A DNA stretch of 64,000 bases from Eledone cirrhosa (Eukaryota), in the NCBI GenBank assembly GCA_964016885.1, contig CAXHJY010001738.1, forward strand, positions 62,001 to 126,000. Direction: 5' to 3'. Made by a program: the position numbers and the translations under genes. Of the stretch, positions 1,261 through 64,000 are shown piece after piece (the first letter of the stretch is position 1; every line of letters starts with the position of its first letter). The notes below the pieces were generated by a model. That model did no database searches and had not been told where the DNA came from. It was given only the letters and a program-made list of their open reading frames with translations.

Positions 1261-1698
1261 ACCAAATTACCTAGCACAAACCCACAACCAACTGTCAAAA
1301 AATGTGGTCGCTCTAATTGTGGAACCTGCACTCACCTCATTGAAGGCAACACGTATACATTTAAATCAGGACAAAATTTTGGTGTAAAAAATCACTTCAC
1401 TTGCTCATCAAAAAATCTAATTTATGCCATTAAATGTAAAGGATGCAATGAAGATTATATAGGACAAACTAAACTCACACTTAGAAACAGGATGACGGTT
1501 CATCGCCAACAATTACGAGATCCAACCACGAGACAGATACCACTAAGCGCATATCTAGATATTTGCGCAAGTAATAAGACACCCAAATTCCAAGTCTTCC
1601 AATTTTACCTTTGCGCTGACAATACAACAGAACAAATATGAATAAATAAGGAAAATATGTTTATTCAAAAATATAGACCAGCAATAAATATGGTTTAA
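1261..1698 (+). pseudogene. C-terminal Zn-finger + GIY-YIG endonuclease remnant of a Penelope-like element (Neptune-like linker)
   Basis: Manual translation gives KKCGRSNCGTC...FTCSSKNLIYAIKCKGCNEDYIGQTKLTLRNRMTVH...KENMFIQKYRPAIN; premature TGA at 1639-1641; no RT upstream. Confidence 0.8.
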
Positions 1699-3572: not shown

Positions 3573-3710
3573 TATATATATATATATAAAGCGCTCATAT
3601 ATTCACCTAGCTTACGCTAAACAGAATAATTATGAAGCTTGTTTCTTTCCCCTACGGTTAGCTATACTCTTTGTTGTTCTCCTGTCTCACTCGCTTTACG
3701 CGTTTCAATT

Positions 3711-3811
3711 GTCCTAATAACTTATTTTGTTTATTCTTGCACCGACGTGTGGTATATGATTTTTAATGCAATGAAATATCTATGATCGTCGGCAAATCAT
3801 TGATGAGGGAC
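3711..3811 (+). ncRNA. Rearranged hammerhead ribozyme, array copy 1 (degenerate)
   Basis: Same fold as other copies but core UUGAUGA (C3U without compensation) and k-turn GA changed to GU. Confidence 0.55.
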
Positions 3812-4221
3812 TCATTTTATTGCATGTTATCCATGTGCTACCTGCAGTATTTTTCTCTATATTTTATTACATATATTTACCCAAACTGCGATTCTGTGTT
3901 TTTTTCTCTCTCTCTCTTACTGCTCCCACATTCTCTCTGTTTCTCCTACCTTCTTTCGCCCCCTCTGTCATGTCAGTTAACTCATCCTCACACTTTCACT
4001 TACTCACTGTTTCTCCTCTCTTCATTTCATCCTGTACACCACGAAGGCTATTTTTCTCTCTTCTCACATGGCCATCGTTCGTGCCAGGTTTTTTTTCTAA
4101 AGCGCTCATATATTCACCTAGCTTATGCTAAACAGAATAATTTTGAAGCTTGTTTCTTTCCCCTACGGTTAGCTATACTCTTTGTTGTTCTCCTGTCTCA
4201 CTCGCTTTACGCGTTTCAATT

Positions 4222-4322
4222 GTCCTAATAACTTATTTTGGTTATTATTGCACCGACGTGAGGTATATGATTTTTAATGCAATGAAATATCTATGATCGT
4301 CGGCAAATCACTGATGAGGGAC
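4222..4322 (+). ncRNA. Rearranged (non-circularly permuted) hammerhead ribozyme, array copy 2 (intact)
   Basis: GGUAU-A^UGAUUU ... UGCAAU-GAAA-UAUC ... AAAUCA-CUGAUGA-GGGAC; predicted cleavage after 4267. Confidence 0.75.
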
Positions 4323-4733
4323 TCATTTTATTGCATGTTATCCATGTGCTACCTGCAGTATTTTTCTCTATATTTTATTACATATATTTACCCAAACTGC
4401 GATTCTGTGTTTTTTTCTCTCTCTCTCTTACTGCTCCCACATTCTCTCTGTTTCTCCTACCTTCTTTCGCCCCCTCTGTCATATCAGTTAACTCATCCTC
4501 ACACTTTCACTTACTCACTGTTTCTCCTCTCTTCATTTCATCCTGTACACCACGAAGGTTATTTTTCTCTCTTCTCACATGGCCATCGTTCGTGCCAGGT
4601 TTTTTTTTCTAAAGCGCTCATATATTCACCTAGCTTATGCTAAACAGAATAATTTTGAAGCTTGTTTCTTTCCCCTACGGTTAGCTATACTCTTTGTTGT
4701 TCTCCTGTCTCACTCGCTTTACGCGTTTCAATT

Positions 4734-4834
4734 GTCCTAATAACTTATTTTGTTTATTCTTGCACCGACGTGAGGTATATGATTTTTAATGCAATGAAAT
4801 ATCTATGATCGTCGGCAAATCACTGATGAGGGAC
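4734..4834 (+). ncRNA. Rearranged hammerhead ribozyme, array copy 3 (intact)
   Basis: All core residues and helices present; predicted cleavage after 4779. Confidence 0.75.
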
Positions 4835-5245
4835 TCATTTTATTACATGTTATCCATGTGCTACCTGCAGTATTTTTCTCTATATTTTATTACATATATT
4901 TACCCAAACTGCGATTCTGTGTTTTTTTCTCTCTCTCTCTTACTGCTCCCACATTCTGTCTGTTTCTCCTACCTTCTTTCGCCCCCTCTGTCATGTCAGT
5001 TAACTCATCCTCACACTTTCACTTACTCACTGTTTCTCCTCTCTTCATTTCATCCTGTACACCACGAAGGCTATTTTTCTCTCTTCTCACATGGCCATCG
5101 TTCGTGTCAGGTCTTTTTTTCTAAAGCGCTCATATATTCACCTAGCTTATGCTAAACAGAATAATTTTGAAGCTTGTTTCTTTCCCCTACGGTTAGCTAT
5201 ACTCTTTGTTGTTCTCCTGTCTCACTCGCTTTACGCGTTTCAATT

Positions 5246-5346
5246 GTCCTAATAACTTATTTTGTTTATTATTGCACCGACGTGAGGTATATGATTTTTA
5301 ATGCAATGAAATATCTATGATCGTCGGCAAATCACTGATGAGGGAC
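5246..5346 (+). ncRNA. Rearranged hammerhead ribozyme, array copy 4 (intact)
   Basis: All core residues and helices present; predicted cleavage after 5291. Confidence 0.75.
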
Positions 5347-5756
5347 TCATTTTATTACATGTTATCCATGTGCTACCTGCAGTATTTTTCTCTATATTTT
5401 ATTACTTATATTTACCCAAACTGCGCTTCTGTGTTTTTTTCTCTCTCTCTCTTACTGATCCCCCATTCTCTCTGTTTCTCCTACCTTCTTTCGCCCCCTC
5501 TGTCATGTCAGTTAACTCTTCCTCACACTTTCACTTATTCACTGTTTCTCCTCTCTTCATTTCATCCTGTACACCACGAAGGCTATTTTTCTCTCTTCTC
5601 ACATGGCCATCGTTCGTGTCAGGTCTTTTTTCTAAAGCGCTCATATATTCACCTAGCTTATGCTAAACAGAATAATTTTGAAGCTTGTTTCTTTCCCCTA
5701 CGGTTAGCTATACTCTTTGTTGTTCTCATGTCTCACTCGCTTTACGCGTTTCAATT

Positions 5757-5857
5757 GTCCTAATAACTTATTTTGTTTATTCTTGCACCGACGTGAGGTA
5801 TATGATTTTTAATGCAATGAAATATCTATGATCGTCGGCAAAACACTGATGAGTGAC
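5757..5857 (+). ncRNA. Rearranged hammerhead ribozyme, array copy 5 (helix mismatches)
   Basis: Core intact; stem I AAAACA and closing helix GUGAC mismatched. Confidence 0.6.
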
Positions 5858-6267
5858 TCATTTTATTACATGTTATCCATGTGCTACCTGCAGTATTTTT
5901 CTCTATATTTTATTACATATATTTACCCAAACTGCGATTCTGTGTTTTTTTCTCTCTCTCTCTTACTGCTCCCCCATTCTCTCTGTTTCACCTACTTTCT
6001 TTCGCCCCCTCTGTCATGTCAGTTAACTCTTCCTCACACTTTCACTTACTCACTGTTTCTCCTCTCTTCATTTCATCCTGTACACCACGAAGGCTATTTT
6101 TCTCTCTTCTCACATGGCCATCGTTCGTGTCAGGTCTTTTTTCTAAAGCGCTCATATATTCACCTAGCTTATGCTAAACAGAATAATTCTGAAGCTTGTT
6201 TCTTTCCCCTACGGTTAGCTATATTCTTTGTTGTTCTCCTGTCTCACTCGCTTTACGCGTTTCAATT

Positions 6268-6368
6268 GTCCTAATAACTTATTTTGGTTATTATTGCACC
6301 GACGTGTGGTATATGATTTTTAATGCAATGAAATATCTATGATCGTCGGCAAATCACTGATGAGGGAC
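6268..6368 (+). ncRNA. Rearranged hammerhead ribozyme, array copy 6 (k-turn variant)
   Basis: Core intact; k-turn strand UGU instead of UGA. Confidence 0.65.
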
Positions 6369-6780
6369 TCATTTTATTACATGTTATCCATGTGCTACCT
6401 GCAGTATTTTTCTCTATATTTTATTACATATATTTACCCAAACTGCGATTCTGTGTTTTTTTCTCTCTCTCTCTCTTACTGCTCCCCCATTCTCTCTGTT
6501 TCTCCTACCTTCTTTCGCCCCCTCTGTCATGTCAGTTAACTCTTCCTCACACTTTCACTCACTCACTGTTTCTCCTCTCTTCATTTCATCCCGTACACCA
6601 CGAAGGCTATTTTTCTCTCTTCTCACATGGCCATCGTTCGTGTCAGGTCTTTTTTCTAAAGCGCTCATATATTCACCTAGCTTATGCTAAACAGAATAAT
6701 TCTGAAGCTTGTTTCTTTCCCCTACGGTTAGCTATACTCTTTGTTGTTCTCCTGTCTCACTCGCTTTACGCGTTTCAATT

Positions 6781-6881
6781 GTCCTAATAACTTATTTTGT
6801 TTATTATTGCACCGACGTGAGGTATATGATTTTTAATGCAATGAAATATCTATGATCGTCGGCAAATCACTGATGAGTGAC
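6781..6881 (+). ncRNA. Rearranged hammerhead ribozyme, array copy 7
   Basis: Core intact; closing helix GUGAC variant. Confidence 0.65.
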
Positions 6882-7291
6882 TCATTTTATTACATGTTAT
6901 CCATGTGCTACCTGCAGTATTTTTCTCTATATTTTATTACATATATTTACCCAAACTGCGATTCTGTGTTTTTTTCTCTCTCTCTCTTACTGCTCCCCCA
7001 TTCTCTCTGTTTCTCCTACCTTCTTTCGCCCCCTCTGTCATGTCAGTTAACTCATCCTCACACTTTCACTCACTCACTGTTTCTCCTCTCTTCATTTCAT
7101 CCTGTACACCACGAAGGCTATTTTTCTCTCTTCTCACATGGCCATCGTTCGTGTCAGGTCTTTTTTCTAAAGCGCTCATATATTCACCTAGCTTATGCTA
7201 AACAGAATAATTCTGAAGCTTGTTTCTTTCCCCTACGGTTAGCTATACTCTTTGTTGTTCTCCTGTCTCACTCGCTTTACGCGTTTCAATT

Positions 7292-7392
7292 GTCCTAATA
7301 ACTTATTTTGTTTATTATTGCACCGACGTGAGGTATATGATTTTTAATGCAATGAAATATCTATGATCGTCGGCAAATCACTGATGAGGGAC
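7292..7392 (+). ncRNA. Rearranged hammerhead ribozyme, array copy 8 (intact)
   Basis: All core residues and helices present; predicted cleavage after 7337. Confidence 0.75.
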
Positions 7393-7456
7393 TCATTTTA
7401 TTACATGTTATCCATGTGCTACCTGCAGTATTTTTCTCTATATTTTATTACATATA

Positions 7457-7903
7457 TATATATATATATATACATACAGGTACACATACATATATGCACG
7501 CATCAGTTTAGCGGACGCTTATTATAACGCCGCTTTTTTCGTTTGTCAACAAACTGAACAGCCCGAATTTATGCCATACGGTGTTAAGGCAACCACGTCA
7601 CCTTTTTGTTCAACACTGACACAGGAACGATGTACTAGTTTCAAGCTTGTTAACTATCATCAGCACCGTTTACCCATCTGCCAGATAGTTGAACGTTCGA
7701 AAGTATATACTTTCCTTATGTAAATTAACGGCTGAGCAGCCTAATTTGCATATTGAGTGAGTTAAATCGGTCAGGCATACCGAAAACGATAAGTTGAAAA
7801 AAATGAAAACGAAATTTCATTTCTCACTCTTAGTATGGCACTTTCTTAAATGTAAGTATGTATGTATACGTACATACATATATGTATACAGACGTACAGT
7901 AGC

Positions 7904-9267: not shown

Positions 9268-11730
9268 TTAACTGTATACTTTGTGAAAAGTTCTATGGAA
9301 TTTATGAAGGCAGATGGAAAACAAATCCGAGCGTCTATTTATTATGGATTCTAGGTTAGAGATAATGGTAAATTTTTCATTTAGGCAGAGATTACAGATT
9401 TTAGATAGAGAACTGTTCAAGTACGAGGATGCAGAAGAAATCTTTTTCCAAAAGATGTTATATTTAATGTTTTTGTCTTTTAAGGACCATATGAGTTCTG
9501 AGAGAGCAGTGTTAGTTCTTTTAAGTTTGTATTTGAAAGATGAATGATGATTATAGAGACGAGCTTTAAAAGAGGTGGAAGTGGAGCCAAAATAGGTGAA
9601 GGAGTTGGTGCTAGTTATAATTTTACATTCATAAATTAAGTTTTTATCGAGGCAATGGTTGTTGAGAGGACATTTATTTTTAATGCGGCAGTTGCAATTA
9701 GAGAGATTATTAATGAGTGATCTAGTGTTATCTATAGAAGGAATTGGATTGGAGAAGTTGTTTGCGATAGGAATAATAGGAGTAATAGTTTCTTGATTTA
9801 GAGTTGGATTATGAACATTTAACGAAGTTGTGTTTGACGTTGTATTTGGGTTTACAGAAGTTAGCCTAGGGTTTACAATGACGTCAGGAGTGCTATTATT
9901 GTTATTATGAGATTCAATATTGGAAGGAAGAGATTTAGTATTTAATATTTTGTTGTTGTGTTTAGAAATGATGTTGGAAATATTGGAGGATGTAGAATAC
10001 GAAAATTTAATGGTGTGTTTGTTAAATATTTTACTATAGATATGTGAGGGAGGGAAGCATTTATTTAAGGCACTAAAAAATAATTTAGGAATATTGTTAT
10101 TAATAGAGATGGAGAAAGGAGCATTATACCAGATTATGTTTTTGTATCTAGGTCTTTTATTAAAATTATTGGAATGGTTATGATTAAATATTCTACTGTA
10201 AGTTTTCCTAGAATTTGTTTCTTTATTATATTTGATTTTATCTGGATAGCCAGCTTTAGAAAGTGCGTTATTATAGTAATTGGCGTTAGCATCAAAGATG
10301 TTTTTATTAGAAGATATGTTAGATATTCTATTTCCAATATTATTAACTATAGCATTCTTGATATTGGTAGGATGGTTAGATTTAAAGTTAACATAATTAA
10401 GATTCTCATTGTTTTTATGGTAAGGGTAATATAGGCCAGTGTCAAGATTAAGAGATACATCCAAGAAATTAGCTAGTTTGGTACTATTATCAAATTCAAT
10501 TTTTAGGTTATGTTGGTTAAAGAGATTACGTATATTGTTCTTAATAATATTAAGTTTAACTATATTGCAATTTAGGATAGTAAAGAGTCCATCGTCACGA
10601 TAAATTCCACCGCGAAGTTGAGGAATTTTCCGACTCAAAGAGTTCAAAATGAAGATACCAATTAAATCAGTCAATTGGGATGAATCGGATGCTCCCATTG
10701 TGATGTCGAAGTTGTTAGAGGTATCGGCTCTGGTCCAATATTCGTTGTTGAACTCTAGGATGGTTTTACGTGCGGTGAGGATGATGTGAAGTTCATCTGT
10801 GGTGATGTCAGAATATTTAAGTGCGAAAGATAGAGCATTATTGAGAAGTGAAGGCGAAATGGAGGAATAGTAGCTGGCAATATCGAATTGAATAAATTTT
10901 AGTTTGTTTTTATTATCCAATTTGTTGAACCAGCCAATCACTTCAGAAGTACCAAACCATAAATTTAGGTTTAAAGAAGAGCAATTAGAACTAACCTGTG
11001 GGATAATCCTATCCAAGATGGCTTTACTAACAACCCCCAGATCAGATTTAGAGGGGGCGATTAATCTAACAGGTAGTTCAGTGCGAAAATTGTTTTTGTG
11101 ATCCTTGAGATTTATCCTCGGAGTTCTTGGGAGGAATGGTTCGGTCTTTTTTTCAATGCCAAGTTTTGACATAATCTCATAGGCTTCAAGGTTTATGCAT
11201 TCTAAATTTTCATGGTTGGTTTTACGATACTTTTTCCTAAGTTCCTTTAGGATAAGGTTGTTATAATTATCCTTGGAAATACCATATAGGTTATTGGTTT
11301 TGTCAGAGTGGACTAAAACATTTTTTGAGGAATTTAGGTTAGAGATTGTGTTCTTGAGATTTACAAGGTGCTCTTGTCCTTTGTAAGGGTATCTCTTGAA
11401 TTTAAGATTTTTTATAATTTTAGTTAATTCTTCCTCGAATTGTGCTAGATTTTTGTTGGAAGGAGGATTTCGTCTGGAATTAAAAAGATGATCGAGGAAG
11501 TTGTGTTCTTTGGTATGAAAGTTCCCTTTTAGGCGCTGGTCATAGAAATAGGCTGTCCATCTAAGTCTTCTTACGAAGGAGTCAGTTTTTTCAATAAGAA
11601 GTTTGGTGAATTCAGATTTACCAGGTATAGGAATGTCTTTAGTAGAATTGGTTATGTTGTAATAATCCATGTTGTAGAAGAAGAGGTGAAGGACCATCAA
11701 AAGGTATCCAATATGAGAGTAAGCGCTCAA
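9268..11730 (-). CDS. PLE polyprotein: reverse transcriptase + C-terminal GIY-YIG endonuclease (intact; true start may be the downstream ATG of MDYYN)
   Basis: SDKT, QFDIASYY, TMGASDS, GIYRDDG, NFLDV, SNHP; LIYECKI..TYFGST..FKARLYNH; CNLCLNEK. Confidence 0.93.
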   Translation of the reverse strand: MSAYSHIGYLLMVLHLFFYNMDYYNITNSTKDIPIPGKSEFTKLLIEKTDSFVRRLRWTAYFYDQRLKGNFHTKEHNFLDHLFNSRRNPPSNKNLAQFEEELTKIIKNLKFKRYPYKGQEHLVNLKNTISNLNSSKNVLVHSDKTNNLYGISKDNYNNLILKELRKKYRKTNHENLECINLEAYEIMSKLGIEKKTEPFLPRTPRINLKDHKNNFRTELPVRLIAPSKSDLGVVSKAILDRIIPQVSSNCSSLNLNLWFGTSEVIGWFNKLDNKNKLKFIQFDIASYYSSISPSLLNNALSFALKYSDITTDELHIILTARKTILEFNNEYWTRADTSNNFDITMGASDSSQLTDLIGIFILNSLSRKIPQLRGGIYRDDGLFTILNCNIVKLNIIKNNIRNLFNQHNLKIEFDNSTKLANFLDVSLNLDTGLYYPYHKNNENLNYVNFKSNHPTNIKNAIVNNIGNRISNISSNKNIFDANANYYNNALSKAGYPDKIKYNKETNSRKTYSRIFNHNHSNNFNKRPRYKNIIWYNAPFSISINNNIPKLFFSALNKCFPPSHIYSKIFNKHTIKFSYSTSSNISNIISKHNNKILNTKSLPSNIESHNNNNSTPDVIVNPRLTSVNPNTTSNTTSLNVHNPTLNQETITPIIPIANNFSNPIPSIDNTRSLINNLSNCNCRIKNKCPLNNHCLDKNLIYECKIITSTNSFTYFGSTSTSFKARLYNHHSSFKYKLKRTNTALSELIWSLKDKNIKYNIFWKKISSASSYLNSSLSKICNLCLNEKFTIISNLESIINRRSDLFSICLHKFHRTFHKVYS

Positions 11731-11876
11731 CCGTTAAGGAGCAAGTAAATGTAGGAGGTGAGTTTTATTGTAGTACAATAAAGCAATGCAGATATCGGAT
11801 AAGAAGCACTCTACAGTTTGTGGGACTGGAGTATGCATAATATAAGATCAAAAGATGGTTAAAGGAGTTCAATATA

Positions 11877-13162: not shown

Positions 13163-15625
13163 TTAACTGTATACTTTGTGAAAAGTTCTATGGAATTTAT
13201 GAAGGCAGATGGAAAACAAATCCGAGCGTCTATTTATTATGGATTCTAGGTTAGAGATAATGGTAAATTTTTCATTTAGGCAGAGATTACAGATTTTAGA
13301 TAGAGAACTGTTCAAGTACGAGGATGCAGAAGAAATCTTTTTCCAAAAGATGTTATATTTAATGTTTTTGTCTTTTAAGGACCATATGAGTTCTGAGAGA
13401 GCAGTGTTAGTTCTTTTAAGTTTGTATTTGAAAGATGAATGATGATTATAGAGACGAGCTTTAAAAGAGGTGGAAGTGGAGCCAAAATAGGTGAAGGAGT
13501 TGGTGCTAGTTATAATTTTACATTCATAAATTAAGTTTTTATCGAGGCAATGGTTGTTGAGAGGACATTTATTTTTAATGCGGCAGTTGCAATTAGAGAG
13601 ATTATTAATGAGTGATCTAGTGTTATCTATAGAAGGAATTGGATTGGAGAAGTTGTTTGCGATAGGAATAATAGGAGTAATAGTTTCTTGATTTAGAGTT
13701 GGATTATGAACATTTAACGAAGTTGTGTTTGACGTTGTATTTGGGTTTACAGAAGTTAGCCTAGGGTTTACAATGACGTCAGGAGTGCTATTATTGTTAT
13801 TATGAGATTCAATATTGGAAGGAAGAGATTTAGTATTTAATATTTTGTTGTTGTGTTTAGAAATGATGTTGGAAATATTGGAGGATGTAGAATACGAAAA
13901 TTTAATGGTGTGTTTGTTAAATATTTTACTATAGATATGTGAGGGAGGGAAGCATTTATTTAAGGCACTAAAAAATAATTTAGGAATATTGTTATTAATA
14001 GAGATGGAGAAAGGAGCATTATACCAGATTATGTTTTTGTATCTAGGTCTTTTATTAAAATTATTGGAATGGTTATGATTAAATATTCTACTGTAAGTTT
14101 TCCTAGAATTTGTTTCTTTATTATATTTGATTTTATCTGGATAGCCAGCTTTAGAAAGTGCGTTATTATAGTAATTGGCGTTAGCATCAAAGATGTTTTT
14201 ATTAGAAGATATGTTAGATATTCTATTTCCAATATTATTAACTATAGCATTCTTGATATTGGTAGGATGGTTAGATTTAAAGTTAACATAATTAAGATTC
14301 TCATTGTTTTTATGGTAAGGGTAATATAGGCCAGTGTCAAGATTAAGAGATACATCCAAGAAATTAGCTAGTTTGGTACTATTATCAAATTCAATTTTTA
14401 GGTTATGTTGGTTAAAGAGATTACGTATATTGTTCTTAATAATATTAAGTTTAACTATATTGCAATTTAGGATAGTAAAGAGTCCATCGTCACGATAAAT
14501 TCCACCGCGAAGTTGAGGAATTTTCCGACTCAAAGAGTTCAAAATGAAGATACCAATTAAATCAGTCAATTGGGATGAATCGGATGCTCCCATTGTGATG
14601 TCGAAGTTGTTAGAGGTATCGGCTCTGGTCCAATATTCGTTGTTGAACTCTAGGATGGTTTTACGTGCGGTGAGGATGATGTGAAGTTCATCTGTGGTGA
14701 TGTCAGAATATTTAAGTGCGAAAGATAGAGCATTATTGAGAAGTGAAGGCGAAATGGAGGAATAGTAGCTGGCAATATCGAATTGAATAAATTTTAGTTT
14801 GTTTTTATTATCCAATTTGTTGAACCAGCCAATCACTTCAGAAGTACCAAACCATAAATTTAGGTTTAAAGAAGAGCAATTAGAACTAACCTGTGGGATA
14901 ATCCTATCCAAGATGGCTTTACTAACAACCCCCAGATCAGATTTAGAGGGGGCGATTAATCTAACAGGTAGTTCAGTGCGAAAATTGTTTTTGTGATCCT
15001 TGAGATTTATCCTCGGAGTTCTTGGGAGGAATGGTTCGGTCTTTTTTTCAATGCCAAGTTTTGACATAATCTCATAGGCTTCAAGGTTTATGCATTCTAA
15101 ATTTTCATGGTTGGTTTTACGATACTTTTTCCTAAGTTCCTTTAGGATAAGGTTGTTATAATTATCCTTGGAAATACCATATAGGTTATTGGTTTTGTCA
15201 GAGTGGACTAAAACATTTTTTGAGGAATTTAGGTTAGAGATTGTGTTCTTGAGATTTACAAGGTGCTCTTGTCCTTTGTAAGGGTATCTCTTGAATTTAA
15301 GATTTTTTATAATTTTAGTTAATTCTTCCTCGAATTGTGCTAGATTTTTGTTGGAAGGAGGATTTCGTCTGGAATTAAAAAGATGATCGAGGAAGTTGTG
15401 TTCTTTGGTATGAAAGTTCCCTTTTAGGCGCTGGTCATAGAAATAGGCTGTCCATCTAAGTCTTCTTACGAAGGAGTCAGTTTTTTCAATAAGAAGTTTG
15501 GTGAATTCAGATTTACCAGGTATAGGAATGTCTTTAGTAGAATTGGTTATGTTGTAATAATCCATGTTGTAGAAGAAGAGGTGAAGGACCATCAAAAGGT
15601 ATCCAATATGAGAGTAAGCGCTCAA
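13163..15625 (-). CDS. PLE polyprotein RT + GIY-YIG, second identical copy
   Basis: Translation identical to 9268-11730. Confidence 0.93.
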   Translation of the reverse strand: MSAYSHIGYLLMVLHLFFYNMDYYNITNSTKDIPIPGKSEFTKLLIEKTDSFVRRLRWTAYFYDQRLKGNFHTKEHNFLDHLFNSRRNPPSNKNLAQFEEELTKIIKNLKFKRYPYKGQEHLVNLKNTISNLNSSKNVLVHSDKTNNLYGISKDNYNNLILKELRKKYRKTNHENLECINLEAYEIMSKLGIEKKTEPFLPRTPRINLKDHKNNFRTELPVRLIAPSKSDLGVVSKAILDRIIPQVSSNCSSLNLNLWFGTSEVIGWFNKLDNKNKLKFIQFDIASYYSSISPSLLNNALSFALKYSDITTDELHIILTARKTILEFNNEYWTRADTSNNFDITMGASDSSQLTDLIGIFILNSLSRKIPQLRGGIYRDDGLFTILNCNIVKLNIIKNNIRNLFNQHNLKIEFDNSTKLANFLDVSLNLDTGLYYPYHKNNENLNYVNFKSNHPTNIKNAIVNNIGNRISNISSNKNIFDANANYYNNALSKAGYPDKIKYNKETNSRKTYSRIFNHNHSNNFNKRPRYKNIIWYNAPFSISINNNIPKLFFSALNKCFPPSHIYSKIFNKHTIKFSYSTSSNISNIISKHNNKILNTKSLPSNIESHNNNNSTPDVIVNPRLTSVNPNTTSNTTSLNVHNPTLNQETITPIIPIANNFSNPIPSIDNTRSLINNLSNCNCRIKNKCPLNNHCLDKNLIYECKIITSTNSFTYFGSTSTSFKARLYNHHSSFKYKLKRTNTALSELIWSLKDKNIKYNIFWKKISSASSYLNSSLSKICNLCLNEKFTIISNLESIINRRSDLFSICLHKFHRTFHKVYS

Positions 15626-15805
15626 CCGTTAAGGAGCAAGTAAATGTAGGAGGTGAGTTTTATTGTAGTACAATAAAGCAATGCAGATATCCTTTAACCA
15701 TCTTTTGATCTTATATTATGCATACTCCAGTCCCACAAACTGTAGAGTGCTTCTTATCCGATATCTGCATTGCTTTATTGTACTACAATAAAACTCACCT
15801 CCTAC

Positions 15806-16372: not shown

Positions 16373-16722
16373 ATATATATATATATATTCCTCTTTCCTT
16401 TTTTCTCTTTCTTCCTCTCTCTTCACTATCTTTTCTTTCCCTCAGGGCCTTTTGATTGATAAAAGGCCTTGGGCGCGCTGCTGATCAATTTCGATGTCCT
16501 GTTTGAAGCGCTGAAACATCTATGATCTGCAGTTAACAGCTGATGAATGGTTTCTTCTCTTGTTACGTCCATATTACGATCTTTGTTTAGTGTAACTACA
16601 CAGCCTGCTTCGTTTCTTATATATATATATATATGAAAGACGTAAAATAAGAAAATTATAAAAATTAACTTACTTACTAAAATTTCACTCCAACTAATTC
16701 TTTATATATATTTATATATATG

Positions 16723-24454: not shown

Positions 24455-25033
24455 TTATACTTCTCTTAGGTCAGTGTTGTTTGTTTGGGTGTTGTTATTC
24501 CATTCATTTTCTCGGTTTAGCCTTGGCCTTCTAAATTCTATTTCGCTGGCCTCTCTGATTTGCCTATCCGCTGGGTCATTTCTATGTTTAGATATTATTC
24601 TAATTTCTATGTTGTCTATGTTACCATCGTGTTGTTGTCTAGCATGTTCGTATAGTACTGAACCGTTTTTTCGTCCTTTTAGTTCCCCCCAGTGTTTGTC
24701 TATCCTTTCACCTATACTACGAGCTGTCTCGCCTATGTATGTTGTTGTCATGTTTCTGCAAGTACCCTCTGTACATCTTATGCTATAGACTACGTTTCTA
24801 GTTTTACAGTTTATCTGGGGGTTTACTTTACATATAATACATTTCCTATTAGTAGAGTGGGTTTTCATAAAAGGGTAGATTTTGCTGATCAGGGATTTTA
24901 TGGTGGTTCCTGGCTTTTCTACCACCTTAATCTTTAAGTGGGTCTTTCTCAGGGCCTTTCTACACTAGTTAGCTAATTTCCCCCCACGGTAGCGTCCACA
25001 AACATGACACTCTGGTATCTCTGGTTGTCGTAC
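24455..25033 (-). pseudogene. PLE GIY-YIG endonuclease remnant (CCHH type)
   Basis: CIICK..NCKTRNVVYSIRCTEGTC..TYIGETARSIGERIDKH..HARQQH..REASEI..PRLN; upstream frame disrupted. Confidence 0.85.
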
Positions 25034-30739: not shown

Positions 30740-31511
30740 TGTGTGTATAGTGTTTTGTTTGATGTGTGTTCGTGATTGGGTGACTGTGTATTGGTTATTG
30801 TATTCTATCTTTACTAGTGTGTGTTTATATGTGTTTGTTGTTATTGTGCTTGTGTATGTATTTATTTATTTGTTTATCTATTTATTTATTTATACTTCTC
30901 TTAGGTCAGTGTTGTTTGTTTGGGTGTTGTTATTCCATTCATTCTTTCTGTTTAGCCTTGGCCTTCTAAGTTCTATTTCGCTGGCCTCTCTGATTTGCCT
31001 ATCTGCTGGGTCATTTCTATGTTTAGATATTATTCTAATTTCTATGTTGTCTATGTTACTGTCGTGTTGTTGTCTAGCATGTTCGTATAGTACTGAACCG
31101 TTTTTTCGTCCTTTTAGTTCCCCCCAGTGTTTGTCTATCCTTTCACCTATGCTACGAGCTGTCTCGCCTATGTATGTTGTTGTCATGTTTCTGCAAGTAC
31201 CCTCTGTATATCTTATGCTATAGACTACGTTTCTAGTTTTACAGTTTATCTGGGGGTTTACTTTACATATAATACATTTCCTATTAGTAGAGTGGGTTTT
31301 CATAAAAGGGTAGGTTTTGCTGCTCAGGGATTTTATGGTGGTTCCTGGCTTTTCTACCACCTTAATCTTTAAGTGGGTCTTTCTCAGGGCCTTTCTACAC
31401 TAGTTAGCTAATATCCCTCCAGGGGTAGCGTCCACAAACATGACACTCTGGTATCTCTGGTTGTCGTACCATGAGGTGGCTTTCCCTATCTTATGTCTAG
31501 CCCTATCTAAG
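30740..31511 (-). pseudogene. Second copy of the PLE GIY-YIG remnant seen at 24455
   Basis: ORF 30890-31360 nearly identical to 24455-24925. Confidence 0.85.
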
Positions 31512-34338: not shown

Positions 34339-34343
<5 letters not shown>

Positions 34344-35036
34344 AAGGACCACTTTATTCATATGTAACCCATTTGCAACTCCGCAGCACGTTTATTCTCA
34401 TATTTACACATATTTTTTTTCCCCGCTGTGACCCGTCTATTTCGTTCTTACTGCTTCCTCTTTCTCTGTATCTTTACCCTCTCTAACAGTCACACTCTCT
34501 CTGTTAGCCTCTCCCTCACTCACTCACTCTCTGTTACTACCTCTCCTCCTCCTCCTTCTTCCCGTTTGACCTGTGCGTAATTCTTTTCTTTCGCACGTTT
34601 GGCCAGGCCGGTCGGCATTTTTTCTCTCTCTCGTCTACGATTTCACAGAACTTATGTTTACCGAATTCACGGACTAGACCCCTTCTTCCTCCCGTTAGAC
34701 CTGTGCGAAATTCCTTCCTTGCTCACATTTCAACCAGGTTTGATGGTCTTTATTCTCTCTCGTTCACGATTTCACCGAACTTATATTCATAGAAATTTTT
34801 TGACTTGACTCGTTCTTCCTCACTTTTCGTTGCTTCACCATCTTTGTTTGTTTACACTCTCGCTGTTCCCTTTATTTACATGTCCCAACGACTTTCTTTA
34901 GCCGTTGCTCGCACCAACCGGAGGTATATGGTCTTTAAAGCGAAGAAATACCGATGATGGTTGGAAGATCACTGATGAAGGACCACTTTATTCATATGTA
35001 ACCCATTTGCAACTCCGTAGCACGTTTATTCTCATA
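34339..35036 (+). mobile_element. Non-coding element related to the 511-bp unit: 634-nt monomer with ~60-nt terminal redundancy (family B)
   Basis: gatgaaggaccactttattcatatgtaacccatttgc.. at 34340 and 34974; bounded by (TA)n. Confidence 0.85.
34882..34983 (+). ncRNA. Rearranged hammerhead ribozyme (diverged homolog)
   Basis: GGUAU-A^UGGUCUU..GCGAA-GAAA-UACC..AAGAUCA-CUGAUGA-AGGAC; predicted cleavage after 34928. Confidence 0.75.
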
Positions 35037-35935: not shown

Positions 35936-35997
35936 TTTTATTATACATATTTCAGAGGTACTGAGCTATTTCATCAGTACGTCCTCATCAGATAAAA
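35936..35997 (-). ncRNA. Type I hammerhead ribozyme of the pLTR
   Basis: UUUUAU-CUGAUGA-GGACGUACUG..CAGUACCUCU-GAAA-UAUGUA-UA^AUAAAA. Confidence 0.85.
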
Positions 35998-37564
35998 TAA
36001 ATTGATGTCTGACATACCTCAACTGTGCTGATGGTTCAATTCCAGTCTTGGCAGTGATTAGTTATGACAAAATTCAATATTTATATACCGTAAGTTGTAA
36101 CATGAAAAATTACATATAATAGAGAGGGTACGTAGGAAGATGTGTATAAAAATATATAATAATAAATATAATAAGTATATATAAATAAGTATATATAAAG
36201 GCAAGTAATAAATATAAACATAAAACTACATAACTGTTAAAAATTTAAATAATAAAATATGTATACCTTCGTATTATGGAGGGAGTAAATGAGAGAGGGA
36301 GAGGGCTAACAGGAGGAGAGAGAGAAAAGAAAAGAGAGATGATAGTAAAAACAAAGAAAGGGAGATATGTATGGTAACATATAATTACATAAGGAGAAGG
36401 AGAATCAAGATATATGATGCGTGACTGGTTTTTTTTCAAATATTAATTTAATTAGAAATAATCAATTAGTTAAATAACTTGAAATTTTTCGACTATAATA
36501 TCTGAAAGAACCTATATTATTGTATTATATCAAAATTAAGACAAATATAAAGTGGAAAAGATAATTTAACATAACTCCAAGAGTAATGAAGAGTATATTT
36601 AAATTATTAAATATAGTCAATAATTTAGTTAAAAAGATTAAAATTAAAAATGTTATTAACTAACCATAAAGCTTATAAATGTAGTAAATATGATATTATT
36701 AAACCAGATTTATTTAGATATAAGCATTTGTATAGTTCATATATAAACTATAAGATTTAAATCAATATTTGTCAAAATTACACTTAAGAATGTTATAGAT
36801 TTGATTTAATTAGATTTTACTGTATTCAAAATTATGCATCAAGTTAAGTACAGATTATTAATCAATTTAAATAAAACGAAACTTTTATACGATAAATGTA
36901 AACAATATCCTCGTAAGACGTAAACAAACATTTAAAGTAATTAAACGGTTTATAAGTCTGAAGACATTACAGGTATCAAATTTATAAGATACAAGATTTA
37001 AAAAATACAAAATCAAAACTAAATGTATTTAAACAATCTAGAGATTAAGATACTCTATAAGAGAGCAGGTAAACAATTTCTATGGTTAGGTAGAAACCTT
37101 ATATCCAATATTAATAATTACAAGAATTATTAATCAGAGTCAATATCATTTCACACTCGGAATTATTAATAAAAGTCGAAATCATTTCACGTTTAGACAA
37201 TGTTTTTTCCTAATTTTATATGATGCTTGGAATGTAGATGCAGATTTGTGCAGGCAATTTGAGAATAATTCACTTTTTTTGTTAATTAAGTTACCATAAT
37301 TAGCTATTATTAATAGATTCTCGGTATCACAAAGATTGCAGTTAGGATAAATAGAGGAATTTTGGTAGACTTGACAATTGTGAAGCTTGGACCAAAATAT
37401 TGAGTATTTTAAATGTTTCTCTTTTAAAGACCATATTAGTTGTGATAAAGAAGTAGAAAATTTCTTATCCGGATTAGAAAAAGAATGTTTATGATTGGAA
37501 AATTTCAGTTTAAAGCTCGATGAAGTTGCACCTATGTAATTGTAGGTAATGTTATTTGCTTTAA

Positions 37565-45719: not shown

Positions 45720-47600
45720 GAAGAACGCTGGAAGGTAATATCCGTAGTGGTAGAGCACTCAGTCCAAGGGACGAGTTAGGTAGAAGTGGTTACACAACAG
45801 TTAGGTCACCATACCGAGAATGAGAACAATTGTTTCACCTTAGCGGATCCTCAGCTCGTAATGGACATGGTATACGGAACAGGAAGGACAACCGTACGAA
45901 CGCGCATGCGCAGAAACGATCATTTCACACAGGCAATACTAAATTGCACATGTAGACTAATCCCACATGTAGACTAATAAACCCGGAACACACAGATATG
46001 GGACCAGTCAGTAAGGTGATACTTAGAAACATAGTTAAGACCATTAGGACCAAGTCCAACCTGCCCCAGTGGGAGAACAGCGACCCGTAATTAAGTGGTT
46101 TAACTCCTTCAAATCCAAAAAAGCGAAGTTCACACAGTTTGACATTCTCGATTTTTACCCGTCGATCTCAGAGACCCTGTTAAACAAAGCGTTGGACTTT
46201 GCTACCACTTATACCACCGTCGATGGTTTAGACAGGGAAATCATCGCTCACTGCCGGAAAACCCTCCTCTTCAACGACGGAGTAGCCTGGGCAAAGAAGT
46301 CTACATCTTCAGACCTGTTCGACGTCTCCATGGGATCGTTCGACAGTGCTGACGTATGCGACTTGGTTGGCCTTTTTATTTTAGACATATTACGTGTTAG
46401 ATTCCCGGACTTCCACACGGGAATATACCGCGACGATGGACTGACCTTATCGAGCCATAAAAGTGGTCACGACCTCGACCGGTTTAAAAAAGACTTAGCT
46501 TCTACCTTCAATGAGTTAGGACTTAAGATAACAGTAGCCACCAACCTCTCTAGCGTAGATTTCGCACACACACCTACAGACCCTTCCATAAGCTAAACGA
46601 AAAACTCAATTACATTCACAAGGACTCATGCCACCCTCCCACTGTTTTTAGAAACTTCGTAAATAATATCAGTACTAGAATCTCAAACCTCTCCTCTAAT
46701 AAGGCTATCTTTGACAGGGCGGCACCCTACTATAACACGGCATTAGCTAACAGCGGCTTCTCGCAACCTATCACTCACTCTCCCACTAACAACAACAGCA
46801 ATAAGAAAAGAAAGCGTAACAATAGACAAACTATCTGGTTCTCTCCTCCCTTCTCACTCAACGTTAAAACCAATGTAGGCAAAACATTTCTAGCCCTCTT
46901 AGATAGACACTTTCCCATAGGTCATAAATACTGCTCCATCTTTAACCGACACAAAGTAAAACTAGGATACTCCTGCGCTAAGAACATGAAGGCCCACATC
47001 ACCAACAGCCCTAAGAGCAACGCCCCACCAGGGTGCTCTTGCCGTAAGCCTGAATCTTGCCCCCTTCAACAGCAATGCAACACACCCGCTGTAGTTTATG
47101 AAGCTGTAGTCACTTCCAACCGACCGAATCAACCACAGGAGATCAAATCCTATGTGGGTATGGCGGAGGGCCGATTTAAGGAACCACCAGTCGACCTTTA
47201 GGTATCCGGACAGACGTTCATCCATGAAACTCGCGAGCCACGTATAGTCCTCCAAGGACTCAAGTATAGACTACTCCATTCAATGGAAAGCCATCAATAA
47301 GTCCAAGCCATACGCAAGGGGCAATCCGTCGTGTGGACTATGTATTGATGAACGAATAAATATTCTAAAGAGATTACGCAATAGTGATTGCCTAAACACG
47401 AGAAATGAATTCTTCACACGTTGTCCACACGTCTGGAAACACCTCTTACATAACTACAAAGCTCCGGATTGAATTACAACAACATCCTAATTTTCTTATC
47501 AACCAGAAACTTTTGGACGTTCGCAGTTATCTCCCTTACACCTCTCGCACGCAATTTAGTATTGTAAAATGTTGAACTAACTGTTGTATAACCACTTCTA
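45717..47600 (+). mobile_element. Decayed Hydra-like PLE (RT+EN remnant ~45975-47472) with inverted pLTR at the 5' end
   Basis: QFDILDFYPSI, SMGSFDS, GIYRDDG, CSCRKPESCPL, VVYEA..SYVG; 45781-45810 is the reverse complement of 47570-47600. Confidence 0.88.
45822..45857 (-). ncRNA. Minimal type I hammerhead in the inverted pLTR
   Basis: GAG-CUGAGGA-UCCGCUAAGGU-GAAA-CAAUUG-UU^CUC. Confidence 0.65.
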
Positions 47601-48373: not shown

Positions 48374-48540
48374 AAGGTTAAACAAGGTTCAATTAATAAA
48401 TCAAAGAACTAGTTTTACAATAGATTGGAACCACTCAACAGAAATGGTTTTCCGGAGTTATTAATATTAATTCCAAATATCAACTACCATGACTGGGTCT
48501 TAACCATCTACTATGTCAGGGTATGTCATGCATCATCTTA

Positions 48541-48603
48541 TTTTATCTGATGAGGACGTACTGTTGAAGTTAGCTCAGTACCTCTGAAATATGTATAATA
48601 AAA
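48541..48603 (+). ncRNA. Type I hammerhead in a solo pLTR fold-back (48372-48650), same family as 35936
   Basis: UUUUAU-CUGAUGA-GGACGUACUG..CAGUACCUCU-GAAA-UAUGUA-UA^AUAAAA. Confidence 0.85.
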
Positions 48604-48877
48604 TATACTTGATCACAAGAAGTTCTATTTTTGTTAATATTTTGAATTAATATATATATATATATATATATACAAAGTTATAACCAGTCAGTTCATCGGA
48701 GCTTGCATTTCTTGCAAACTCCGATGAACTGACTGGTTATAACTTTGTATTGGCGATCGAGTAACGTGAAAATAAGCGGATAGCGATCTCTAGACCTACC
48801 AGTTCAGGGAAACAATTGTCAGTAATGAGATTAAAAACATTTTTTGTATAGCAAACTGTGTCACTCTTCTTCAATAA

Positions 48878-51961: not shown

Positions 51962-52396
51962 TAAAATTAGTCCGTCATCAGTGATCTTCCAGCCTTCATT
52001 GGTATTTCTTCGCTTTAAAGATCATATACCTCTGGTTGGTGCGAGCAATAACTAAAGAAAATTATTGGGACACGTAAAATAGGGTGAAGCGAGCGAGACA
52101 TGTAAACAAACATAGATGGTAATGCAACGGAAAGATAGGAAGAGGGGAAAACAAGTCTGTGATATCTGTGAACTTAAGTTCTGTGAAATCATAGACGAGG
52201 AGAGATACAGGCCATCCGACCTATGTGAGATGTGAGCGAGAAAAGGATTTCACACAGGTCAAACGGGAGGAAGTGAGAGAGGGGGAGAAGCAGAGAGTGA
52301 GTGAGTGAAAGTGTGAGGCTGAAATATCACTGATGAAGGACTAATTTTATTCATATGTAACCCATGTGCAACCACGCAGCACGCCATTTTTCATAT
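51956..52396 (-). mobile_element. Truncated relative of families A/B with inverted 3' tail (52326-52396)
   Basis: Homology to 34500-35036; PLE-type inverted terminus; bounded by (TA)n. Confidence 0.8.
51970..52071 (-). ncRNA. Rearranged hammerhead ribozyme (third homolog)
   Basis: GGUAU-A^UGAUCUU..GCGAA-GAAA-UACC..AAGAUCA-CUGAUGA-CGGAC. Confidence 0.72.
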
Positions 52397-52405
52397 ATAT
52401 ATATA

Positions 52406-53959: not shown

Positions 53960-57220
<3,261 letters not shown>

Positions 57221-60634: not shown

Positions 60635-63600
60635 CACAACAACTACAACAACAACAACTACAATAACAACAACTACTACAACAACAACACCACCAACACA
60701 CCACCACCAACACACCAACACCACCACCACGAACACACCACCACGAACACACCACCACCAACACACCACCACCACCACACCAACACACCACCACCACCAC
60801 CACCAACACACCACCACCAACACACCACCACCAACACACCACCACCACCACACCAACACACCACCACCACCACCAACACACCACCACCACCACCAACACA
60901 CCAACACCACCACCAACACACGACCACCACCAACACACCACCACCACCACCACACCAACACACCACCACCACACCACCACCACCACCAACACACCACCAC
61001 CACACCAACACACCACCACCACCACCAACACACCACCACCACACCAACATACCACCACCACACCACCACACCACCACCACACCAACACACCACCACCACC
61101 ACCACACCAACACACCACCACCACCACCAACACACCACCACCACACCACCACCACACCAACAAACCACCACCACACCACCACACCACCACCACACCACCA
61201 CACCACCACCACCACCACACCAACACACCACCACCACCACCAACACACCACCACCACACCACCACCACACCACCACCACACCAACACACCACCACCACCA
61301 CCACCAACACACCACCACCACACCACCACCACACCAACACACCACCACCACCACCACCACACCACCACCACACCACCACCACCACACCACCACCACACCA
61401 CCACCACCACCACCACCACACCACCACCACCACCACACCACCACCACACCACCACCACCACCACACCAACACACCACCACCACCACCACACCAACACACC
61501 ACCACCACACCACCACCACACCACCACCACACCACCACCACACCACCACCACCACCACACCAACACACCACCACCACACCAACACACCACCACCACCACC
61601 ACACCACCACCACACCACCACCACCACCACCACCACACCAACACACCACCACCACCACCACACCAACACACCACCACCACCACCACCAACACACCACCAC
61701 CACACCAACACACCACCACCACACCACCACCACACCACCACCACACCACCACCACCACACCAACATACCACCACCACACCACCACACCACCACCACACCA
61801 ACACACCACCACCACACCAACACACCACCACCACCAACACCACACCACCACCACCACCAACACACCACCACCACACCACCACCACACCAACACACCACCA
61901 CCACACCAACACACCACCACCACCACCACACCACCACCACCACCACCACCACCAACACACCACCACCACCACCAACACACCACCACCACACCACCACCAC
62001 ACCAACATACCACCACCACACCACCACACCACCACCACACCAACACACCACCACCACTCCAACACACCACCACCACACCAACACACCACCACCACCACAC
62101 CACCACCACACCACCACCACCACCACCACCAACACACCACCACCACCACCAACACACCACCACCACACCAACATACCACCACCACACCACCACACCACCA
62201 CCACACCAACACACCACCACCACACCAACACACCACCACCACACCAATACACCACCACCACACCAACACACCACCACCACACCAACACACCACCACCACA
62301 CCAACACACCACCACCACACCAACACACCACCACCACACCAACACACCACCACCACACCAACACACCACCACCACACCACCACCACACCACCACCACACC
62401 AATACACCACCACCACACCACCACCACACCAACACACCACCACCACACCACCACCACCACCACACCACCACCACACCAACATACCACCACCACACCACCA
62501 CACCACCACCACACCACCACACCACCACCACACCAACACACCACCACCACACCAACACACCACCACCACCACCAACACACCACCACCACCACCAACACAC
62601 CACCACCACACCACCACCACACCAACACACCACCACCACACCAACACACCACCACCACCACCACACCACCACCACCACCACCACCACCAACACACCACCA
62701 CCACCACCAACACACCACCACCACACCACCACCACACCAACACACCACCACCACACCAACACACCACCACCACACCAACACACCACCACCACACCAACAC
62801 ACCACCACCACCACACCACCACCACACCACCACCACCACCACCACCAACACACCACCACCACCACCAACATACCACCACCACACCACCACCACACCAACA
62901 CACCACCACCACACCACCACACCACCACCACACCAACACACCACCACCACACCAACACACCACCACCACATCAACACACCACCACCACACCACCACACCA
63001 CCACCACACCAACACACCACCACCACACCAACACACCACCACCACACCACCACCACACCACCACCACACCAACACACCACCACCAAACCACCACCACACC
63101 AACACACCACCACCACACCACCACCACCACCACACCACCACCACACCAACATACCACCACCACACCACCACACCACCACCACACCACCACACCACCACCA
63201 CACCAACACACCACCACCACACCAATACACCACCACCACACCACCACCACACCGCCACCACACCAACATACCTCCACCACACCACCACCACACCAACACA
63301 CCACCACCACACCAACACACCACCACAACCACCACCAGCACCACCACAACCACCACCACCACCACCAACACACCACCACCACACCAACACACCACCACCA
63401 CACCAACACACCACCACCACACCACCACCACACCACCACCACACCAACATACCACCACCACACCACCACCACACCAACACACCACCACCACACCAACACA
63501 CCACCACAACCACCACCACAACCACCACCACCACCACCACACCAACACACCACCACCACACCAATACACCACCACCACACCACCACCACACCACCACCAC

Positions 63601-63968
63601 ACCAACATACCTCCACCACACCACCACCACACCAACACACCACCACCACACCAACACACCACCACAACCACCACCAGCACCACCACAACCACCACCACCA
63701 CCACCAACACACCACCACCACACCAACACACCACCACCACACCAACACACCACCACCACACCACCACCACACCACCACCACACCAACATACCACCACCAC
63801 ACCACCACCACACCAACACACCACCACCACACCAACACACCACCACAACCACCACCACAACCACCACCACCACCACCACACCAACACACCACCACCACAC
63901 CAACACACCACCACCACACCACCACCACACCAACATACCACCACCACACCACCACCACACCAACACAC
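60635..63968. repeat. CAC/CCAACA-rich complex satellite
   Basis: Direct reading; higher-order period ~339 near the end (ccagcac with g at 63338 and 63677). Confidence 0.95.
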
Positions 63969-64000
63969 TACCGATCAAAGATGAACGTTTTAACAAACAA

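Follow-up and report, generated by a model that had tools for sequence, protein, structure and literature searches.

A kink-turn signature in the stem III extension of a re-ordered hammerhead repeated across the Eledone cirrhosa genome

How can a hammerhead whose strands follow one another in a rearranged order still close into a fold able to cut itself? The question is raised by a tandem array in the window, the whole 64,000-nucleotide stretch of Eledone cirrhosa DNA analysed here, for which an initial annotation proposed that a kink-turn (k-turn) built into stem III provides the answer. Ribozyme copies in the window are located as follows.

3587..7457 (+): non-coding units of 511-513 nt in tandem, about 7.6 of them, carrying 8 copies of the ribozyme; flanked by (TA)n runs
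16472..16546 (+): copy of a subfamily without tandem G.A (GAU pairs with AUC; 6 extra nucleotides in the non-bulged strand)
34908..34978 (+): ribozyme of the second subfamily, its k-turn with U.G at 3b.3n, within a 634-nt unit that is repeated in part
51975..52045 (-): third copy of the ribozyme, with A.A at 3b.3n of its k-turn

The k-turn duplexes reported for array copy 2, for 34.9 kb (+) and for 52.0 kb (-) were all confirmed letter by letter. The accompanying list of copies was incomplete, having overlooked 16472-16546, which is without the G.A/A.G pairs. Partial ribozyme 3' pieces are also present at 52314-52399 (+) and 34339-34403 (+), and the 52-kb locus holds two ribozyme pieces that are inverted relative to each other, a situation it shares with many other loci (L028, L069 and L075 among them). 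(TA)n runs border the array and stand at the 3' ends of most non-coding carriers; a long CAC-rich low-complexity tandem array occupies 60636-63984. The sequencing runs listed as carrying the sequence include no RNA run. Among the contigs from sequencing runs, X1 covers the array unit and is informative on neither expression nor cleavage, and run X4 gave three contigs less than 90% alike, one of them spanning the ribozyme, that are likewise silent on both.

The arrangement of the ribozyme is described here for array copy 2.

4248..4251 (+): stem II 5' strand, from upstream of the cleavage block, pairing with 4279-4282 (covariation)
4253..4261 (+): k-turn non-bulged strand, with NC helix 4253-4258, U3n 4259, G2n 4260 and A1n 4261
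4262..4267 (+): strand of stem III (the C helix of the k-turn) and AUA as the NUH triplet; the cut is predicted 3' of 4267
4268..4283 (+): 4268-4273 as the 5' strand of stem I, then the linker containing a near-invariant UAA, 4279-4282 as the 3' strand of stem II, and U11.1 at 4283
4284..4294 (+): GAA core, stem III strand 4287-4291 and bulge L1-L3 4292-4294
4295..4303 (+): G1b 4295, A2b 4296, U3b 4297 and NC helix 4298-4303
4305..4317 (+): 3' strand of stem I, followed by the CUGAUGA core
4319..4325 (+): short closing helix P0, likely its 3' strand, with the partner at about 4238-4243 (by eye)

The non-bulged strand of the k-turn duplex, including the C helix, spans 4253-4266 and the bulged strand 4287-4303; position 4252, where the annotated feature had begun, is the A of the junction and lies outside this duplex. 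The 5' half runs from the stem II 5' strand through a single nucleotide, the k-turn arm, the stem III strand and the NUH triplet to the stem I strand. In the 3' half, the UAA linker is followed by the stem II 3' strand, GAAA, the stem III strand, the bulge, GA and the second k-turn arm, after which come one nucleotide, the other stem I strand and CUGANGA. All the hallmarks of a hammerhead are thereby present (CUGANGA, GAAA, NUH and stems I-III), with A, C or U at H17 and U, C or A (G once) at N7 across the family. A pairing of stem II with the sequence after CUGAUGA was considered and excluded: the upstream strand covaries and is therefore taken as the stem II 5' strand. One-pair extensions of stems I and II found no support in the E. 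cirrhosa genome. Single-strand folding gave z = -0.35, a value that is uninformative because the RNA is pseudoknotted.

The re-ordered sequence occurs more than 20,000 times in the E. cirrhosa genome, core patterns returning between 8,869 and 23,548 matches against 0 to 61 for reversed controls. The pattern GAAA-N23-CUGAHGA gave 198 matches in the fetched loci and the window, 142 of which passed a filter restricted to stems I and III and reduced to 109 distinct copies. Alignment A1 comprises 98 of these 109, together with two rows in which U16.1 is changed to C; 11 truncated or indel-bearing rows were dropped by eye. Pairing was found in 94.3% of the paired cells of A1, and the covariation score was 0.525, compared with 0.219 for shuffled alignments and at most 0.127 for slid partners, the shuffle control ignoring relatedness although transposon copies share ancestry. 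Two-sided changes were seen at 20 of the 21 pairs, which bears out the proposal of a second junction where stems I and II meet the k-turn arm; since all four helices covary, this junction is well supported by the comparison of copies. Furthermore, the UAA of the stem I-II linker (4275-4277 and equivalents) is 99-100% conserved in A1, as a core element would be, and on the internal branches of the A1 tree the k-turn arm's distal C-G pair shows zero changes. A tertiary contact made at the second junction possibly involves this near-invariant UAA and the distal C-G. No hammerhead or k-turn family appeared in Rfam among the 150 of 189 window matches listed, nor among 18 matches from seven loci; the rearranged layout explains why more than 20,000 copies in a single genome escape the models of Rfam.

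More distant relatives were collected with a pattern that fixed the core, the UAA and the k-turn dinucleotides. Metagenomes yielded 85 matches: in 17 of them 18-21 of the 21 positions pair, in the other 68 between 2 and 16; the 17 have the same layout with unrelated stem sequences. Because the pattern demanded GA, this set shows the layout and not the frequency of k-turn-less relatives. None of four matches in viral contigs pairs, and one of 44 in prokaryote genomes does. That one, a perfect copy (L364), comes from a bacterial metagenome-assembled genome, where its contig measures 2.7 kb, and is nearly the same as the retrotransposon-linked type described below, so that it is likely carried-over eukaryotic DNA. 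The distant rows also place the break in the hammerhead. In 13 of 14 distinct rows the base that opens the upstream strand is paired with 11.1 (as G-C in 10), in columns (10.1-11.1) that formed no part of the selection; the break therefore falls between A9 and G10.1. By its sequence the ribozyme is a non-circular permutation opened at this point. In the best-preserved copies linked to open reading frames, a helix of 9-12 bp begins at A9 or one base after, and a hairpin precedes G10.1 to give a four-way junction (about 7 of the 17 loci examined). This helix, P0, is short in the window carriers, as judged by eye.

In 12 of 15 translated matches the motif comes after, or overlaps with, the end of an ORF of retrotransposon type (linked loci include L250, L188, L220, L211 and L167, and L263-L281 and L322 in genome G000). 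These elements have a single ORF with a reverse transcriptase (RT) followed by a C-terminal endonuclease domain, the arrangement of the R2 group; we take the endonuclease label from motifs, and on the same basis presume the elements to be HERO-like. The full protein P0001 has 1,132 aa and includes an RT domain; among its homologues are proteins named from fish genomes, its best solved-structure matches are R2 proteins, and its C-terminus is matched at 138 places in the E. cirrhosa genome. When 60 loci were picked by protein alone, 17 parsed fully as the ribozyme compared with 0 of 180 shuffles. Eleven of the 17 carry G.A, A.A, U.G and A.A, which comes close to variants of Kt-23; one is, by eye, from a family whose GA/GA is canonical; and five form family C, which can be read either as a plain 3-nt bulge or as a Kt-23-like k-turn (G.A, A.U, G.U) with a 4-nt loop. 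At G000:C2:317.45 Mb a 610-nt 3' piece abuts a full 3,599-nt unit, making the insert 1.17 units long, and at L188 related sequence is found downstream of the ribozyme. Non-coding carriers mostly end 61-126 nt past the cut at a (TA)n run, with a variable 5' end, and blastn of the three window carriers against the ORF-linked loci L262-L327 detected no similarity at E<0.01.

Other mobile sequence in the window includes a broken non-LTR element with RT and endonuclease, weakly similar to P0001 (40494-44131, -). Two identical 821-aa ORFs lie in a 3.9-kb tandem duplication at 9268-11733 (-) and 13163-15628 (-), each near a hammerhead-like CUGAUGA...GAAA sequence (about 8.0 and 11.9 kb). From their motifs we take them to encode a Penelope-like RT; a Pfam search of the 821-aa ORF gave no match. 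GIY-YIG and RT fragments of Penelope-like type are found at 1261-1641 (+), which has a Pfam GIY-YIG match, and at 24455-24964 (-), 30890-31399 (-), 46048-47201 (+) and 54433-54900 (+). Classic type I hammerheads, in which stem II is long and stem III short and palindromic, are present at about 35940-36000 (-) and 48540-48615 (+).

A k-turn is a kink of about 50 degrees with A-minor hydrogen bonds, and its consensus, a Watson-Crick C helix, a 3-nt bulge and tandem G.A/A.G pairs, was recognised correctly in the array and proves to be conserved genome-wide. With the positions left free in the search, 22,449 of 23,548 core matches retain G1b-A2b (the controls giving 61 and 2), and G2n-A1n reads GA before the stem III/I/II block in 14,809 of 16,078 matches, the remainder being UA in 608, the commonest variant counted (G2n to U), and something else in 661. 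GA at both positions would be expected at about 0.2% from the GA frequency of the window. Among the 100 matches listed, the UA variant belongs mostly to two amplified subfamilies. The GA/GA columns of A1 do not pair in Watson-Crick fashion. On the internal branches of its tree A1n does not change, G2n changes three times and L1, 3b and 3n change 6-10 times, columns 1b, 2b and L3 being biased as many rows were chosen by patterns that fix them. The pattern of variation is hence that of a k-turn: A1n, G1b and A2b are conserved, 2n tolerates U or A, and L1 and 3b.3n vary. Replacement of G2n by U or A with both adenines retained is natural k-turn variation, as in Kt-23 (PMC2790904, PMC3985660). Taken together, the comparison of sequences leaves the k-turn signature well supported.

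It appears that the full-consensus motif folds as a real k-turn hinge and that the re-ordered hammerhead folds and cleaves, probably without a host protein, a reading to which we give a probability of roughly 0.7. The k-turn, whose sharp bend we infer from the motif, would turn the stem III extension back to the second junction with stems I and II, and the closed cage so formed would let the re-ordered hammerhead fold and cut itself, the predicted site lying after H17. Folding of the k-turn would be driven by Mg2+ and by tertiary contacts, the latter of which can fold k-turns unaided (PMC5061560). In the ORF-linked copies, the gap at A9/G10.1 is filled by the closing helix and hairpin. Self-cleavage may define a unit-length, perhaps circular, RNA both in R2-group retrotransposons and in non-coding carriers such as the array. 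Reverse transcription could start downstream of the ribozyme and copy across the cut site, on either a circle or an uncut longer transcript.

The initial annotation had also called the motif box C/D-like and suggested modulation by a host k-turn-binding protein. The U.U pair at 3b.3n holds for the array; it is replaced by U.G at 34.9 kb, and at 52.0 kb by A.A with a C.A mismatch in the arm. Among the 109 copies U.U is found in 42, and in none of the 14 distant ones, so that it is not a conserved feature. The full C/D core, U.U with G-C at 4b:4n, is present in 14 of the 109 and 0 of the 14. The array itself has C-G at 4b:4n and at -1, the Kt-7 pattern, which favours folding in Mg2+; U.U is an intermediate 3b.3n pair, and the failure of C/D k-turns to fold requires G-C at 4b:4n (PMC5689011). 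Moreover, 3b=C or 3n=G, either of which promotes folding in Mg2+ (PMC8191799, PMC4382518), occurs in 51 of the 109 copies and 11 of the 14. The case for a protein comes from the bulge. L3 is U in 91 of the 109 copies, many of them chosen by patterns fixing L3, and in 12 of the 14 distant relatives, where L3 was free in the pattern and L2 is a purine in all 14. L3 faces the solvent (PMC4316175), so its conservation may reflect a binding pocket, and L7Ae binds a wide range of k-turns (PMC3985660). The enrichment of L3=U and purine L2 therefore keeps 15.5K binding in play, and, judged by sequence, a protein of the 15.5K/L7Ae family would likely bind in vitro. That regulation depends on such binding is not likely. 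A protein-gated switch, in which the k-turn folds and the ribozyme acts mainly with host 15.5K/Snu13 or another L7Ae-family protein, would draw on the same bulge and on the 14 copies with a full C/D core, but sits poorly with the loss of U.U, with amplified subfamilies that have G, C or A at L3 and 3b=C, and with the pro-folding pairs of the array; we regard it as unlikely.

Three observations count against the hinge. In one subfamily (151 exact genome matches, NUH intact) AUC stands opposite GAU, so that A1n has become C, the tandem G.A/A.G is gone and the I-II linker is 2 nt shorter; one branch gains six nucleotides. Change of A1n to C disables the SAM-I k-turn (PMC5061560), and the kink is therefore not strictly required. 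Family C can be read in a Watson-Crick register with a plain 3-nt bulge. In the array L1=U is able to pair with A1n, and the predicted minimum-energy duplex has that pair. The loss of GA in further homologues had been named beforehand as one test of the k-turn: the dinucleotides are kept in most families and lost in one, that with A1n to C. The annotation also offered array copies 1 and 6, with A1n changed to U, as natural comparators. Both carry the change (3750 and 6307), but the core of copy 1 also has C3 changed to U (3800), and the clean comparator is therefore copy 6 only. The A1n to C subfamily with its insertion branch and the Watson-Crick register of family C lend weight to a flexible bulge being sufficient, with G.A pairs common but replaceable and no true k-turn needed, as does the substitution of k-turns by other bends in RNase P and lysine riboswitches (PMC5061560). 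Against this, GA/GA persists while all flanking stem positions change, both here and in unrelated contigs, departures from it amount to about 1% of copies, and family C fits a Kt-23-like k-turn as well, which makes the plain bulge a decidedly improbable account.

That the structure is chiefly a platform binding the element's own RT, with little or no self-cleavage, would suit its place directly behind the ORF, 60-120 nt upstream of a fixed 3' end, and the presence of both sides of the cut site in genomic copies, but it is very hard to credit given that the hallmarks of the catalytic core (N7 and H17) all vary hammerhead-style and that G10.1-C11.1 is present in distant relatives.

The hinge may belong to a larger picture: a seventh natural hammerhead topology opened at A9/G10.1, caged by k-turn and four-way junction, marking the unit boundary in a widespread clade of R2-group elements, cutting and re-sealing their RNA to circles that are reverse-transcribed into inserts exceeding unit length, and tuned through the k-turn by 15.5K, a host splicing/snoRNP protein. 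As a whole this is doubtful at present.

Among known systems the closest is the type SGC (HRIMA-1) non-circularly permuted hammerhead, which has been shown to cleave and whose stems I and II are connected by an interaction stem (PMC10085705, Eckert et al., 2023). The ribozyme shares with it the S-G-C block order, a short I-II linker and a stem that connects stems I and II at their far sides, the interaction stem corresponding to the k-turn arm; as we read Supplementary Table 1, SGC-1 carries a single additional nucleotide between A9 and G10.1 (PMC10085705). It differs in that the stem II 5' strand lies upstream, interrupting block C, which PMC10085705 assumes impossible, its six-type scheme excluding an opening between A9 and G10.1. 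CUGANGA here has no stem II 5' strand within 1-2 nt and a closing helix follows A9; with block C interrupted, the ribozyme is therefore not a type SGC member. In addition, stem III and the interaction stem are linked on both strands through the k-turn, whereas those of type SGC have free ends (PMC10085705), and the ribozyme occurs in eukaryotic genomic repeats and not in metatranscriptomes alone. A term search for 'kink' and 'k-turn' in the text and supplement of PMC10085705 gave 0 occurrences. If the reading is true, the assumption of an uninterruptible CUGANGA block is broken.

As a k-turn, the motif resembles Kt-7, SAM-I and Kt-23 in its 3-nt bulge, G1b.A1n and A2b.G2n, C-G at -1 and non-Watson-Crick 3b.3n, and resembles simple k-turns in the variation of 2n to U or A and in being placed so as to close a tertiary contact. 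Unlike in these, both arms are tied into junctions of a predicted self-cleaving ribozyme. With the box C/D k-turn bound by 15.5K/Snu13 it has in common L3=U and, in the array and some subfamilies, U.U at 3b.3n, but the array has C-G in place of the G-C at 4b:4n. Literature searched outside subscription journals and Repbase contained no earlier description of this k-turn hammerhead and no k-turn with both arms in self-cleaving-ribozyme junctions, and passages of PMC13725137, PMC10162972, PMC3088659, PMC3636483 and PMC7650587 describe no motif of the kind. Use of a k-turn by a small self-cleaving ribozyme in nature would thus be a combination not met with in that search. Its natural variants (2n G/U/A, A1n to C, many 3b.3n pairs) would offer material for the folding rules of k-turns in catalytic RNA, and a hammerhead into which a site for L7Ae is built would lend itself directly to use as a protein-responsive switch.

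The genomic setting recalls the non-LTR retrozymes, which likewise have non-coding tandem units of a few hundred nucleotides, one hammerhead each, in animal-type genomes, and which employ type I hammerheads and Penelope-like elements (PMC7229834; bioRxiv 10.64898/2026.07.22.740005). Here the permutation is another, not type I, and the link is to ORFs with RT and a restriction-like endonuclease. The R2 group of non-LTR retrotransposons comprises the clades CRE, NeSL, R2 and Hero as well as R4 (PMC3636483), and the ORF-linked elements match it in their single ORF with RT and then a C-terminal endonuclease-like domain. Unlike R2, with its 5' HDV-like ribozyme, they carry a hammerhead directly behind the stop codon, which would tie a hammerhead to R2-group retrotransposons rather than to Penelope-like elements.
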